From: Candidatus Bathyarchaeia archaeon | Lineage (GTDB): Archaea > Thermoproteota > Bathyarchaeia > 40CM-2-53-6 | Assembly: GCA_050013255.1 (NCBI GenBank) | Contig: JBEKFP010000002.1 | Span: forward strand, 352,001-416,000 | Direction of reading: 5' to 3' | DNA length: 64,000 bases | Shown: one piece after another, positions 51,077 through 56,022 of the stretch | Layout of the letters: each line of letters begins with the position of its first letter | Numbering within the stretch: the first letter of the stretch is position 1 | The notes under the pieces: generated by a model | Databases searched by the model: none | What the model was told of the DNA's origin: nothing | What the model saw: the letters and a program-made list of their open reading frames with translations, nothing else | Program-made: the position numbers and the translations under genes

Positions 51077-52051
51077 CTATCGGCTTGCTCGGCGCTTAGT
51101 GACTAGCTTGCGGCCGGCGGAGTAAGGATCTATTTTGTTCGCCTCCACCTGTTTCATGATTTTCTGAAACAGTTCGGATGATGCTATCTCCTTTAATGAT
51201 ATCTCCTCAAAATACTGCTTGGCTGCCTCAAGCACCTCCGAGCGCAACCGGTCTTCTTTCGCCTTCCCCAACCCATCAGAGTCCTTAAGGTATTTTGAGT
51301 GCTGGTTTATGGCCTCCACAAGGCCAGTGACTCCTTCTCCGGACATCGCGACCGTCTTCAGGACGCGTGGCCGCCAGCCTCGGAAATGTTCGGACATCAT
51401 GATCATTTGGTCAATTTCTTGCGCTGCGCGGTCCGCATTCTCCCTATCGGCCTTGTTGACGACGAAGATATCAGCGATTTCCATAATGCCCGCTTTCAAC
51501 GCTTGAATTTCGTCCCCCATCCCGGGGGCAGTTACAACGATTGTGGTATGGGCGAGTTGCTTCACATCTACATCAGACTGACCCGCTCCCGCTGTTTCAA
51601 CAATCACATAGTCCATCGCTGACGCGTCGAGGATTCGAACCGCGTCCTCCGTTGCTCTTGCAATTCCTCCAAAATGCCCGCGAGTAGCCATGCTCCTGAT
51701 GAAGACTCGGGGGTCCGACGCGAGTTCTCCCATCCTAATTCGATCACCGAGCAAGGCTCCACCAGTTATGTGACTTGATGGGTCGACGGCAACAATTCCT
51801 ACACTGCGGCCAGCATCTCTGTAACGCTTCGCGAGCTGTGCGATTAGCGTGCTCTTTCCACATCCTGGCGGACCAGTTATACCAATGATCTGAGCCTTCC
51901 CAGCAAGCCAGTACAAGCTGGAAAGAATCGTAATTCTCGCAAGAGGATCATTTTCCGCAGTCGACATTAACTGCGATATGGCACGTCGATCGCCATGCAC
52001 AGCTTTTCGAATTAATGTGTTGGGTGTTGATTTTGCATGGGATTTAGGCAC
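51077..52051 (-). CDS. meaB: Methylmalonyl-CoA mutase-associated GTPase MeaB
   Basis: GITGPPGCGKS, VDPSS-x-GGALLGDRIRM, FIRSMATRG, KAGIMEIAD, NKAD. Confidence 0.95.
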   Translation of the reverse strand: MPKSHAKSTPNTLIRKAVHGDRRAISQLMSTAENDPLARITILSSLYWLAGKAQIIGITGPPGCGKSTLIAQLAKRYRDAGRSVGIVAVDPSSHITGGALLGDRIRMGELASDPRVFIRSMATRGHFGGIARATEDAVRILDASAMDYVIVETAGAGQSDVDVKQLAHTTIVVTAPGMGDEIQALKAGIMEIADIFVVNKADRENADRAAQEIDQMIMMSEHFRGWRPRVLKTVAMSGEGVTGLVEAINQHSKYLKDSDGLGKAKEDRLRSEVLEAAKQYFEEISLKEIASSELFQKIMKQVEANKIDPYSAGRKLVTKRRASR

Positions 52052-52075: not shown

Positions 52076-53665
52076 CTAGATAATGGTCTTGGGATGAAAC
52101 TCCCCATATTCCTCTCTTATGACATCGCTTATTTCGCCAGTGGTACCCCCGGACTTTACAGCGCTGATTATCAAAGGCATCACGTTGATGTCGTCCTCCA
52201 AAGCCTTCTGAAGCTTTCTGAGGCTGCGAAGTAGCCGAGTTTTGTGGCGTTTTCGTTTGAAAGCTTTGGTGCGGGAGATCTGCCGGCGTACTGCTGCCGG
52301 AGCGATCTTATGGAGGGTGATGTGGTACGGTTTCGGGTCAACATATACGTTAACCCCGACTATCTTGTTAGCTCGCGATTCTATTCCCATTTGCCTCTTG
52401 AAGGCGCTATCGCGAATCTGGTTCTGGATGTATCCGCTCTGGATTGCTTTGACAGCACCGCCTAATTTGTCGACTTGATGTATCTCGGCTTTGGCTTCGC
52501 TCTCAATCTTGTTCGTTAGAGATTCCACGTAGAAGCTCCCACCCAATGGGTCAATTGCCTTTGTCACGCCACTTTCGAAGGCTATTATCTGCTGCGTTCG
52601 GAGGGCTATTTTCACGGCTTCCTCTGTAGGTAAAGATAACGCTTCGTCGAGGGAATTTGTGTGCAGGGATTGTGTGCCCCCTAAAACCGCTCCCAAAGCT
52701 TGTATAGCTACGCGCACAATGTTGTTTTGCGGTTGCTGTGCAGTCAACGTTTCACCGCTAGTCTGAGTATGGAAACGTAGCTTCATAGACTCAGGATTCT
52801 TCGAGTGGAATTTCTCTTTCATCATATGCGCCCATATGCGACGCGCTGCACGGAACTTCGCTATCTCTTCCAGGAAATCGTTATGGCATGCAAAGAAGAA
52901 GGACAAGTGTGGTGCGAAATCGTCGACCTCCAATCCTCGCTTAATGCAAGCACGAACGTACTCCTCTGCGTTTGCAAACGCGTAAGCGAGTTCCTGGACT
53001 GCGCTTGAGCCACTTTCCCTTATGTGGTATCCGCTTATGCTGATTGGGTGCCACATCGGCATCTGCTTCGCACAAAATTCGATAATGTCCACAGACAACC
53101 TCAAGGATTGCTCGGGAGGGAAAATGTAGGTATTTCGTGCGATGTACTCTTTGAGAATATCATTCTGCGTCGTTCCCCGCAATCGTGAAAGTGGAACCCC
53201 CTGCGAAGTCCCAACCGCAGCATACATCGCCAGCATTATGGCCGCCGTAGCGTTAATGGTCATCGAAGTACTGACCATTCCAAGCTTGATGCCTTGGAAA
53301 AGCAATCGCATATCTTCCACGGAACTGATGGGTACTCCTACCCGGCCCACTTCGCCCTCGGCTCTCGGGCTGTCTGAATCATACCCCAATTGAGTCGGAA
53401 GGTCAAAGGCGACGCTGAGCCCGGTTTGTCCTTGCTTTATCAGAAACCTGAAACGCCTATTCGTGGCTTCCGCGCTACCAAACCCCGAATACTGCCTCAT
53501 CGTCCAGAGCCGCGAACGGTACATTTCAGGGTAGATACCGCGCGTAAATGGAAATTTGCCCGGTTCACCCAGAATGCCTTTGGGGTAGCGAGGACTGGAA
53601 TCTGACCCGTCGTAATGCTGCTTCCCTGGCAGGCCAGGCGAAGAAGAACTCTTCCCTCCCTTCAA
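52076..53665 (-). CDS. Acyl-CoA mutase large (substrate-binding) subunit, methylmalonyl-CoA type
   Basis: PFTRG, WTMRQYSGF, QNDILKEYIAR, ISGYHIRE, LGGTQSLHTN. No fused B12 domain. Confidence 0.92.
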   Translation of the reverse strand: MKGGKSSSSPGLPGKQHYDGSDSSPRYPKGILGEPGKFPFTRGIYPEMYRSRLWTMRQYSGFGSAEATNRRFRFLIKQGQTGLSVAFDLPTQLGYDSDSPRAEGEVGRVGVPISSVEDMRLLFQGIKLGMVSTSMTINATAAIMLAMYAAVGTSQGVPLSRLRGTTQNDILKEYIARNTYIFPPEQSLRLSVDIIEFCAKQMPMWHPISISGYHIRESGSSAVQELAYAFANAEEYVRACIKRGLEVDDFAPHLSFFFACHNDFLEEIAKFRAARRIWAHMMKEKFHSKNPESMKLRFHTQTSGETLTAQQPQNNIVRVAIQALGAVLGGTQSLHTNSLDEALSLPTEEAVKIALRTQQIIAFESGVTKAIDPLGGSFYVESLTNKIESEAKAEIHQVDKLGGAVKAIQSGYIQNQIRDSAFKRQMGIESRANKIVGVNVYVDPKPYHITLHKIAPAAVRRQISRTKAFKRKRHKTRLLRSLRKLQKALEDDINVMPLIISAVKSGGTTGEISDVIREEYGEFHPKTII

Positions 53666-53773: not shown

Positions 53774-55546
53774 GTGTGGAAACAAATGCCACCAAAACGA
53801 AAAATGAATTACTGGGCCAAGAAAGTTGAGCAAATTGCAGCCGCCAAAAAGAAACAGGGCAGGCTGTACAACCGCAAGGAGCTCCATTCCATCGCGCGAA
53901 AGCAGCGCAAATGGAGCCAAGGCGCTCTCACGGAATGGTTGGTAAAAGCACCTGAGCGCAGGGAAGCCTTCGAGAATCCCTCAGGAATCCCCATCAAGCG
54001 CATCTATGGTCCCACTGATGTGTCGCACCACGATTATCCTCGTGATGTTGGATTACCCGGCGATTTTCCATACACCCGTGGAATTTACCCTACCATGTAC
54101 AGGGGTCGCCCGTGGACTATGCGAATGTTCTCAGGTTACGGGAGCCCTGAGGAAACCAACGCCCGCCTAAAGTACCTCCTTAAAGAAGGCGAAACTGGAC
54201 TGAGCATCGCTTTCGACATGCCCACCTTGTATGGAATTGACGCTGACCATCCGAGAGCGGAAGGCGAGGTTGGCAAATGCGGCGTTTCCGTATCGTCACT
54301 CAAAGACATGGAGGCTATCTTCGATGGTATTCCGCTTGATCAGGTCAGCACTTCAATGACAATCAACGCGCCGGCTTCGGTCCTAACTTGTATGTATGTT
54401 GCAGTCGCAGATGGACGCGGATTGAGGTCAAGAAAACTGCGCGGCACCGTGCAGACGGATATTCTCAAGGAGTATGCTGCCCAAAAAGAGTGGGTGTATC
54501 CCCCTGAAGCCCATCTCCGAATTATCCGTGACATGATGCTTTACTCCACAAAACACCTCCCGCAATGGAACTATGTCAGCATAAGCGGATACCACATTCG
54601 AGAAGCTGGTTCAAGCGCCTTGCAAGAACTGGCTTTTACACTGGCCGATGGTTTTGCATATGTAGACCTAGGCCTCGAGGCTGGGTTGAAGGTGGATAAT
54701 TTTGCCCCCAGGCTGTCGTTCTTCTTTAACTGCGGAATGGATTTCTTCGAGGAAATTGCAAAATTCCGGGCTGCCCGACGAATCTGGTCTAAAGTTCTCA
54801 AGGAAAAATACCATGCGAAGGACCCAAGGTCAATGCTGATGCGATTTCACACTCAGACATCGGGCGTATCGTTGACATGGCAACAACCACTCAACAACAT
54901 CGTAAGAACTGCGGTAGAGGGCTTAGCCGCAGTAATGGGTGGAACACAATCTTTGCACACAAACGCCTACGATGAAGCCTGGGCTCTGCCAACACAGCAG
55001 GCTGCCTTAATTGCGCTGAGAACGCAGCAACTCCTGGCCGAAGAGACAGGTGTTGCGAACGTAATTGACCCTCTCGGCGGGTCTTATTATGTAGAATCGC
55101 TAACGGATGAAATGGAACAGCGAACATTCGAGTATCTCGCGAAAATCGAGGACATCGGCGGTATTCTGGCCGCCATCAAGAAAGGTTTCATCCAAAGAGA
55201 AATCGCAGACACCTCATACAAGTATCAACGTCAGATGGAAGAAGGCAAGAGAGTTATTGTGGGAGTCAATGCCTACGAAATGAATGAAGCTTCTCCTATT
55301 GAGACTCTAAGAATCGACGAAAAGGTGCGCCAGAGCCAGGTAAAGAGGTTAAATGAAGTCAAAAATACTAGGGATGCCACCGCGGTGAAAAACTCTTTAG
55401 AACAACTGCGCTCCTCTTTCGCGGATCCTGATTCAAACAGTATTTACCCGATGCTTAAAGCCGTCAAATCCTATGCGACACTTGGAGAGATCGTTGACGT
55501 TGGGAGAAAAGTGTTCGGGGACTGGAAGGAACCCTCGATACTCTGA
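53774..55546 (+). CDS. Acyl-CoA mutase large subunit, isobutyryl-CoA mutase-like (Phe/Gln)
   Basis: PYTRG, WTMRMFSGY, QTDILKEYAAQKEW, ISGYHIRE, GGTQSLHTN. Start may be 53786. Confidence 0.9.
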   Translation: MWKQMPPKRKMNYWAKKVEQIAAAKKKQGRLYNRKELHSIARKQRKWSQGALTEWLVKAPERREAFENPSGIPIKRIYGPTDVSHHDYPRDVGLPGDFPYTRGIYPTMYRGRPWTMRMFSGYGSPEETNARLKYLLKEGETGLSIAFDMPTLYGIDADHPRAEGEVGKCGVSVSSLKDMEAIFDGIPLDQVSTSMTINAPASVLTCMYVAVADGRGLRSRKLRGTVQTDILKEYAAQKEWVYPPEAHLRIIRDMMLYSTKHLPQWNYVSISGYHIREAGSSALQELAFTLADGFAYVDLGLEAGLKVDNFAPRLSFFFNCGMDFFEEIAKFRAARRIWSKVLKEKYHAKDPRSMLMRFHTQTSGVSLTWQQPLNNIVRTAVEGLAAVMGGTQSLHTNAYDEAWALPTQQAALIALRTQQLLAEETGVANVIDPLGGSYYVESLTDEMEQRTFEYLAKIEDIGGILAAIKKGFIQREIADTSYKYQRQMEEGKRVIVGVNAYEMNEASPIETLRIDEKVRQSQVKRLNEVKNTRDATAVKNSLEQLRSSFADPDSNSIYPMLKAVKSYATLGEIVDVGRKVFGDWKEPSIL

Positions 55547-55581
55547 ACTTCGGAGGTGGAAAGATCTCAACAACAGGGTTG

Positions 55582-56022
55582 ATGGATAGGAAGACCCAGC
55601 CGAGAAAGATTAGGGTGCTTGTGGCAAAGCCCGGGCTCGCGTAAAACCTACGGCCAAACGGGCACGACCGTGGCGCCCTTGTTCTGTGCAGGGCACTCCG
55701 AGATGCTGGGATGGAGGTAATCTACGCAGGGCTCTTGGCTAGCCCTGAACAAGTCGCCCAGATGGCCATAGATGAGGACGTTGATGTTGTCGCTATGAGT
55801 CTACTCAACGGGGCACACATGACCGCGTTCCCGAAAGTCGCGAAGGCGCTAAAAGAGAAACGGGCAAGCGACATACTGCTTGTAGGTGGCGGCATTATTC
55901 CCGAGGAAGATAAACCAAGACTAGAAAGGTTGGGAATAACGGGAAATTTCGGCCCAGGCACAACTCTGAAAGCGATCGTCGACCACATAGTGGTCCGCGT
56001 TCAGAAGGAACGCTGGAAGTAG
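55582..56022 (+). CDS. Cobalamin-binding small subunit of acyl-CoA mutase, join(55582..55639,55658..56022), 140 aa after splicing
   Basis: KIRVLVAKPGL|D|GHDRGA...ALRDAGMEVIY, EDVDVVAMS-x-GAH, GGIIP, FGPGT. Interrupted by an 18-nt insertion containing TAA. Confidence 0.9.
55640..55657 (+). other. 18-nt bulge-helix-bulge (tRNA-type) intron in an mRNA
   Basis: GCCCG-GGCT-CG^C-GTA-AAACC-TAC-GGCC-AA^A-CGGGC: exon stem, 4-bp helix, two 3-nt bulges and intron stem-loop. Excision regenerates GAC (Asp). Confidence 0.85.

Follow-up and report, generated by a model that had tools for sequence, protein, structure and literature searches.

Introns of the bulge-helix-bulge (BHB) type have been described within the cbf5 pre-mRNA of Desulfurococcales and Sulfolobales, where the cut follows the bulge's second base and precedes its third (Watanabe 2002; Yoshinari 2006; Yokobori 2009, PMC2738675). 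Splicing of the cbf5 mRNA and relaxed substrates are connected with the (alpha-beta)2 form of the splicing endonuclease EndA (PMC10485636), a link also drawn in a further paper (PMC5829648). Moreover, an EndA-processed intron was reported in the HVO_1309 mRNA of Haloferax volcanii (Schwarz 2020, PMC7714728; discussed in PMC10485636). In the literature that we searched, confirmed EndA-type splicing of archaeal mRNA is limited to cbf5 and HVO_1309, other protein genes being 'predicted' only, and within archaeal coding sequences it is documented for cbf5 only. The same literature yielded no such intron for Bathyarchaeia or B12 mutases; a 2023 review considers that more archaeal EndA mRNA cases are probably still to be found (PMC10485636). 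Here we analyse a stretch of 64,000 nucleotides from a Candidatus Bathyarchaeia archaeon (contig JBEKFP010000002.1, assembly GCA_050013255.1), the whole of which is called the window. The 18 nt at positions 55640-55657 of the window are very probably a BHB intron in the mRNA of the B12-binding small subunit of an acyl-CoA mutase.

Like the cbf5 intron, the insert is a short BHB-type element within an archaeal coding sequence, with the same cut position, and splits the codon of an essential aspartate between its first and second base. Both are patchily distributed among relatives, with gain and loss, and both have a host with a hetero-oligomeric (alpha-beta)2 EndA, here as suggested by the genes. 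Unlike cbf5, which encodes an RNA-modification enzyme, the host gene encodes a subunit of a metabolic B12 enzyme; the lineage is that of peat Bathyarchaeia, the BHB is strict and not relaxed, and the intron is one of several in its genome, an intron in the genome's own cbf5 included. Splicing is predicted here from sequence. The HVO_1309 intron is said to lie within the 5' untranslated leader, whereas the insert described here lies within the coding sequence, and splicing would be needed to make the protein at all. With the multiple non-canonical tRNA introns of Thermoproteota (Thermoproteales and relatives) it shares the helix-bulge-helix-bulge-helix (hBHBh') geometry, the size range of about 12-30 nt and presumably the enzymes, and the tRNA genes of this genome are heavily interrupted; in contrast to these introns the host RNA is an mRNA, and the exon strands of the helices are codons and doubly constrained (CCC GGG). 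Removal of a small intron by non-spliceosomal means, an endonuclease being followed by joining of the tRNA-ligase type, is also found in the eukaryotic IRE1/RtcB splicing of XBP1/HAC1 mRNA, where the unspliced form likewise yields a different, short product. However, that system uses another endonuclease and another motif (twin stem-loops for IRE1, a BHB here), and IRE1 is stress-regulated.

Reading frame of the interrupted gene

The gene and its parts, all on the plus strand of the window, are as follows.

55582-56022, +, gene for the acyl-CoA mutase B12-binding small subunit (PF02310, TIGR00640)
55582-55639, +, exon 1: 19 codons, then G as base 1 of the split Asp codon
55640-55657, +, predicted BHB micro-intron of 18 nt; homologous inserts occupy this site in 13 genomes as well as in contigs L146 and L147
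55642-55644, +, in-frame TAA within the intron, from translation of the genomic frame
55658-56022, +, exon 2: bases 2 and 3 of the Asp codon, followed by GHDRG and onwards; stop codon 56020-56022

The frame from ATG 55582 reads MDRKTQPRKIRVLVAKPGLA and is terminated by TAA 55642-55644, which gives an unspliced product of 20 aa. Past the TAA, the frame of exon 1 continues as NLRPN-GHDRGALVLCRALRDAGMEVIY. The residues that follow NLRPN and lie upstream of 55711, the first in-frame ATG 3' of the insert, are GHDRGALVLCRALRDAG, and the 17 conserved codons from the intron to this ATG contain no start codon in the window. Excision of 55640-55657 joins G and AC to the codon GAC, and the protein then reads KPGLDGHDRG. 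Only after excision does the motif D-x-H-x-x-G exist, the Asp codon of which is split G|AC. The histidine of this motif is the cobalt ligand in B12 mutases, and intronless orthologues read DGHDRG.

The exon 1 peptide RKIRVLVAKPGL is conserved among the 13 intron-bearing orthologues. Exon 2 alone scores 129 bits with TIGR00640 (cut-off 57) and covers profile positions 14-130; since the intronless orthologue P0015 spans positions 1-130, exon 1 provides the first 13 positions of TIGR00640. The spliced protein would have a length of about 140 aa, and a tryptic peptide across the junction would be VLVAKPGLDGHDR.

The same 18 nt recur without a difference in six assemblies that are independent and stem from different samples (JGI and ENA metagenomes); the insert is therefore not an assembly artefact. 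In all six, gene callers give only the 103-aa open reading frame (ORF) from 55711, which is without the B12 ligand and reaches 55 bits with PF02310. For the window's own species no full-length (spliced) protein was found, the best intact match being 92% identical; the cluster members examined for it have 86, 103 or 126 aa. Proteins with 81-89% identity to the query bear NCBI names that assign them to Bathyarchaeia. A search of the genome found no second mutase-type B12 subunit, so the small-subunit gene is its sole copy.

An earlier note on this DNA had derived much of this reading from the letters of the window. Its N-terminus at ATG 55582, the break at the TAA, the resumption as GHDRG, and the GAC codon with KPGLDGHDRG after removal of 55640-55657 all hold in the sequence, as do the 20-aa unspliced peptide and the lack of the B12 ligand after a restart at 55711. 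Its expectation that gene callers would truncate the gene came true in six of six assemblies.

Predicted RNA structure

The insert and its flanks can fold as helix-bulge-helix-bulge-helix, with two 3-nt bulges on opposite strands and a 4-bp helix between them.

55629-55633, +, outer (exon-exon) helix, 5' strand; pairs with 55659-55663 in five Watson-Crick pairs
55634-55637, +, exon-side strand GGCU of the central 4-bp helix, joined to 55652-55655 by three Watson-Crick pairs and one U-G
55638-55640, +, 5' three-base bulge; predicted cut after 55639
55641-55651, +, inner intron hairpin GUA / loop AAACC / UAC; stem 55641-43 with 55649-51, loop 55644-48
55652-55655, +, central 4-bp helix, intron side GGCC
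55656-55658, +, 3' three-base bulge AAA; predicted cut after 55657
55659-55663, +, outer helix, 3' strand, in exon 2; pairs with 55629-55633

Every pairing of the complete BHB claimed in the earlier note is present. The minimum-energy form given by RNAfold for a stretch of 39 nt moves one pair, with a central helix of 3 bp and an inner stem of 4 bp, at -14.9 kcal/mol versus -14.1 kcal/mol for the canonical BHB, the two being 0.8 kcal/mol apart. Across the orthologues the outer helix has 3-5 bp and the inner stem 2-5 bp, and the loop is variable.

Conservation of the insert in related species

A search of 22 other genomes of the genus found the gene in 15, which together with the window's own gives 16 genomes. 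Thirteen of these 16 carry an insert at the identical site, with lengths of 16 nt (two species), 17 nt (eight), 18 nt (two) and 23 nt (one), and 11 of the 13 inserts are not multiples of three. The fourteenth carrier is a population known from metagenome contigs only (L146, L147), with an insert of 17 nt. All inserts (those of the 13 genomes and of L147) can fold as BHB, and whichever of the four lengths the insert has, cutting behind the second base of each bulge brings back the frame and KPGLDGHDRG in 14 of 14. Since inserts occur at this one site in at least 14 related species or populations, it is almost certain that the tRNA-splicing enzymes cut the mRNA and rejoin it.

All 13 orthologues and L147 keep the central helix paired. 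Its intron side changes only between G and A and between C and U, and pairing is kept both ways. Over the 13 sequences, 94% of the helix cells are paired, versus 19-35% with the 3' partners shifted along.

Purifying selection acts on both exons, whose synonymous divergence is near saturation. Among the 13 species, exon 1 shows a ratio of nonsynonymous to synonymous differences per site (pN/pS) of 0.12 at a pS of 0.52, and exon 2 a pN/pS of 0.09 at a pS of 0.79; for the first four of the GHDRGALVLCRALRDAG codons upstream of 55711 the value is 0.024. The RNA structure leaves its mark on codon choice in the exon. Pro-Gly is encoded by CCC GGG in 13 of 13 intron-bearing genome alleles and in the L146/L147 population, versus none of eight intronless DNA alleles of the family, which use CCT, CCG or CCA with GGT, GGA or GGC instead. 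Likewise, pS is 0.31 over the KPGL codons versus 0.63 over the eight exon 1 codons that precede them. A stop codon (TAA, TAG or TGA) stands two codons past the Leu codon in 14 of 14 introns, and the adjoining loop varies freely. This stop may be under selection to end translation of unspliced mRNA immediately; the sequences share common descent.

A further intronless orthologue from another genus of the family, L018 (G024:C103), reads KPGLNGHDRG, with Asn replacing the Asp of the motif.

Exon-exon junction in intronless copies

The insert is absent with exact boundaries in L121, L140, L143, G008 and G005. L121 (JGI 3300019273) encodes an uninterrupted protein yet has the signature of intron-bearers, CCC GGG CTT GAC GGG C, and groups in the gene tree with the intron-bearing G013 and G016 (support 98/99). 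Searching with the 103-aa truncated product expected from an interrupted L121 gene yielded the ENA metagenome contigs L146 and L147. L121, L146 and L147 are mutually 98.2-98.6% identical, and L121 is without exactly the 17 nt that the other two carry; these boundaries allow no sliding and coincide with the positions of the BHB cuts. Either L121 represents a spliced transcript or its strain has lost the intron precisely, and both readings confirm the predicted exon-exon junction. The JGI series from which L121 comes presumably includes metatranscriptomes.

The intronless DNA alleles L140 and L143, which read CTA GAC GGG, are sister to the intron-bearing G017; the intron was therefore lost precisely at least once. 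Three full-length proteins in or near the clusters of truncated forms (P0152, P0154, P0017) were considered as spliced products and rejected, as they are DNA alleles of intronless lineages. A search of metagenome_contigs with a spliced-junction pattern of degenerate codons gave a single match, L135, a distant and naturally intronless homologue that is uninformative. L121 was not among the matches despite fitting the pattern, so its JGI sample lies outside that collection, which agrees with a metatranscriptomic origin of L121 without proving it.

Splicing enzymes and other predicted introns in the genome

The genome encodes two EndA paralogues (PF01974), an alpha subunit with the Tyr, His and Lys of a catalytic subunit (C2:171363-172085) and a beta subunit without the His (C1:301892-302470), an arrangement that points to an enzyme of the (alpha-beta)2 type. 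The RNA ligase RtcB (PF01139) is encoded as well. Its profile matches in two pieces (1-60 and 49-426) about 1.4 kb apart within one frame of 1039 aa (G000 C1:110968-113778, minus strand), which looks like an intein within the ligase. In the genome, which is rated 100% complete, ARAGORN finds only 30 tRNA genes and reports introns in 25 of the 30. Among these 'introns', several with lengths of 1-2 kb must be spurious, and the program has probably missed many tRNA genes because they carry several introns.

Three further protein-coding genes of the genome have candidate introns.

G000 C1:706117-706150, +, glyA intron, 34 nt, between YAE and GWVGER; the serine hydroxymethyltransferase (SHMT) profile matches at 5-50 and then at 51-399
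G000 C2, about 595050-595100, -, cbf5 intron, 19 nt, inside the codon of the catalytic Asp, which it divides as G|AT (GTL-D-PKVTG)
G000 C2, about 307100-307130, -, elongation factor 2 (EF-2) intron, 28 nt, 21 codons in; excision restores IRNMGIIAHVDHGKT

All three follow the same cut rule as the small-subunit intron. The glyA BHB is relaxed, with the outer helix nearly absent and an inner stem of 11 bp, and the position of the cbf5 intron in its codon matches that of the classical crenarchaeal intron in this gene. In EF-2 the central helix is UCCG/CGGA and the inner stem has 7 bp, and excision gives KEQIRNMGIIAHVDHGKT. A blind screen of the genome combining BHB, ORF fusion and codon score produced 36 candidates, of which most look by eye like fusions of neighbouring genes, and it was dropped as a census. 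The screen missed known cases because of its own thresholds (the short exon 1 here, the relaxed outer helix in glyA).

By its geometry, the consistency of the cut rule, the enzymes encoded and the junction observed, the small-subunit intron appears to be a further case of the cbf5 kind, and we infer that cutting and joining in the cell would be done by EndA and RtcB.

Evidence for and against splicing

Several results weigh against splicing at a BHB. The folding energy is not unusual compared with shuffles (z = -0.54). When the genome was scanned for an outer helix of at least 5 bp, a central helix of 4 bp and an inner stem of at least 3 bp, with at most one G-U and an intron of 16-23 nt, the shape occurred at chance density (17 in the genome vs 14-15 after local shuffling). 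Only three of 14 orthologues have the canonical BHB as their minimum-energy fold; in the remaining ones it lies 0.8-4.4 kcal/mol above the minimum, and the inner stem has just 2 bp in several. No helix pair changed on both sides among the 13 sequences, where only alternations of U-G with U-A and of G-C with G-U occur; the support for the structure consists of one-sided changes and conservation, and coding constrains one strand of each exon helix as well. The absence of two-sided changes is, however, expected because one strand is coding, and is uninformative rather than contrary; over the same 13 sequences, covariation measures do not surpass their shuffles. The shape alone proves nothing; the exact register of a BHB with a frame-breaking insert, for which the random expectation at any one position and length is about 4 in 10 million, exceeds chance.

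The claims of the earlier note that bear on splicing are supported, with small corrections, and its reading fits all the tests run here. Its central one, an EndA-type mRNA micro-intron, gains support from 14 carriers, from selection, from the junction in intronless alleles and from the genes for EndA and RtcB. It had also held that RNA and protein independently select a single junction: the cut register stood, and the argument against a shift by one base, namely that Asn would result, is weaker than claimed, since L018 reads Asn at the Asp position. The alignment of orthologues that it had suggested brought out presence and absence of the intron and no compensatory two-sided changes. The insert turned out to be neither unique nor structurally unconserved, nor is the gene decaying: 13 species carry it, the BHB is kept and pN/pS is 0.12 and 0.09. 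The suspicion that such introns are overlooked in this lineage is confirmed by those found in glyA, cbf5 and EF-2.

A pseudogene, or a gene inactivated by a small insertion, with a fold that resembles a BHB by coincidence, is in our view exceedingly improbable. In its favour, every carrier has an in-frame stop or frameshift, the motif shape is at chance density and gene callers return a truncated ORF. Yet both exons are under strong purifying selection with near-saturated synonymous divergence in 13 species, the gene is the sole mutase-type B12 subunit while two large subunits and MeaB are kept in the window, and four insert lengths all hold the BHB register; selection, the sole B12 subunit and the retained large subunits and MeaB exclude a pseudogene for practical purposes. 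Expression of exon 2 by itself, begun at Met 55711 or, in some species, at a GTG of the insert, would yield a truncated B12 domain and leave exon 1 as a leader peptide. This would account for the conservation of ATG 55711, for the GTG being in frame with exon 2 in some species and for the 126-aa products of gene callers. The protein would, however, be without strand beta-1 and, if begun at 55711, also without the His ligand; selection acts on the GHDRGALVLCRALRDAG codons that precede 55711 and that have no start codon in the window, the GTG is not conserved, and exon 1 is conserved as protein and always restored in frame. We therefore hold this to be very unlikely.

The insert might instead stay in the mRNA and be bypassed by ribosomal hopping, of which phage T4 gene 60 is an example, or be read through with a frameshift, and the stop codon soon after the break and within a hairpin is superficially like the gene 60 take-off site. 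Against hopping, take-off and landing codons do not match (Leu CUN vs CCA, CUA and so on before AAC), and the product would have Asn or no Asp. Read-through would add six residues to the D-x-H-x-x-G loop and be workable only for the two 18-nt forms. Either would require a different trick for each insert length, and L121, L140 and L143 carry the exact excision product as nucleic acid, which makes both highly improbable. There is, finally, hardly any likelihood that the insert is removed from the RNA by another nuclease and ligase or by self-cleavage. This would fit the facts that the role of EndA rests on sequence and that the canonical BHB is not always the minimum-energy fold; on the other hand, the boundaries lie at EndA positions in 14 of 14, glyA, cbf5 and EF-2 share the geometry, and alpha and beta EndA and RtcB are present. 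To our knowledge, 16-23 nt is too small for any known class of self-splicing intron. Splicing of the mRNA at the BHB is the reading that we retain.

Neighbouring mutase genes and start of the small subunit

The genes next to the small subunit include those of two large subunits, of which the one directly upstream requires the small subunit.

53774-55546, +, acyl-CoA mutase large subunit, directly upstream (PF01642, TIGR00641)
52076-53665, -, second acyl-CoA mutase large subunit
51077-52051, -, MeaB-type GTPase, adjoining the minus-strand large subunit

The two large subunits are encoded in divergent orientation and share one small subunit. That on the minus strand has Tyr (RQYSGF) and Arg (KEYIARN) and is methylmalonyl-CoA mutase-like. 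That on the plus strand has Phe (RMFSGY) and Gln (KEYAAQK), is isobutyryl-CoA mutase-like and scores under the cut-off of the NCBIfam methylmalonyl-CoA mutase (MCM) equivalog. As the adjoining large subunit has Phe/Gln and not Tyr/Arg, 'acyl-CoA mutase' is the safer name. The small-subunit gene begins 35 nt downstream of that large-subunit gene, with a start codon that varies among orthologues (ATG, GTG, TTG). Some 22 nt upstream of the start, at 55553-55560, stands the sequence GGAGGTGG, which is conserved throughout the genus. It may represent a distant Shine-Dalgarno site or, being in frame as GGG-x-IS, belong to a longer N-terminus in some species.

Proposed mechanism and significance

We propose that the Lys-Pro-Gly-Leu codons of exon 1 would have two pairing partners: together with the first codons of exon 2 they would form the outer helix, and together with the intron's 3' portion the central helix of 4 bp. 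This pairing would expose two 3-nt bulges on opposite strands, and a heterotetrameric (alpha-beta)2 splicing endonuclease would cut past the second base of each. Ligation of the exons by RtcB would recreate the GAC codon and with it the cobalamin-ligand motif D-x-H-x-x-G, and the spliced mRNA would give a protein of about 140 aa that may serve one or both of the adjacent mutase large subunits. Unspliced mRNA would stop at the codon inside the intron and yield the 20-aa peptide.

The intron lies 20 codons into the gene and within the cofactor-ligand motif. It is conceivable, if rather unlikely, that splicing of this and the other coding-sequence introns is a control point and not mere housekeeping. 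If so, the sole B12 subunit, and hence two acyl-CoA mutases, would depend on the capacity of EndA and RtcB, and together with EF-2, cbf5 and glyA central metabolism and translation would be tied to tRNA splicing across the genus.

A core metabolic enzyme would thus depend on splicing of this type, through an intron in a codon near the cobalt-binding histidine. At least 14 species or populations among the abundant Bathyarchaeia of peat retain this intron, and at least three further genes of the genome carry introns of the type. As gene callers give a 103-aa fragment without the B12 ligand, metabolic reconstructions of these organisms may mistake B12-dependent mutase pathways for broken ones. 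Having sister alleles both with and without the intron, the small-subunit gene offers a clean natural system for intron gain and loss and for the limits that RNA structure sets on codon choice.
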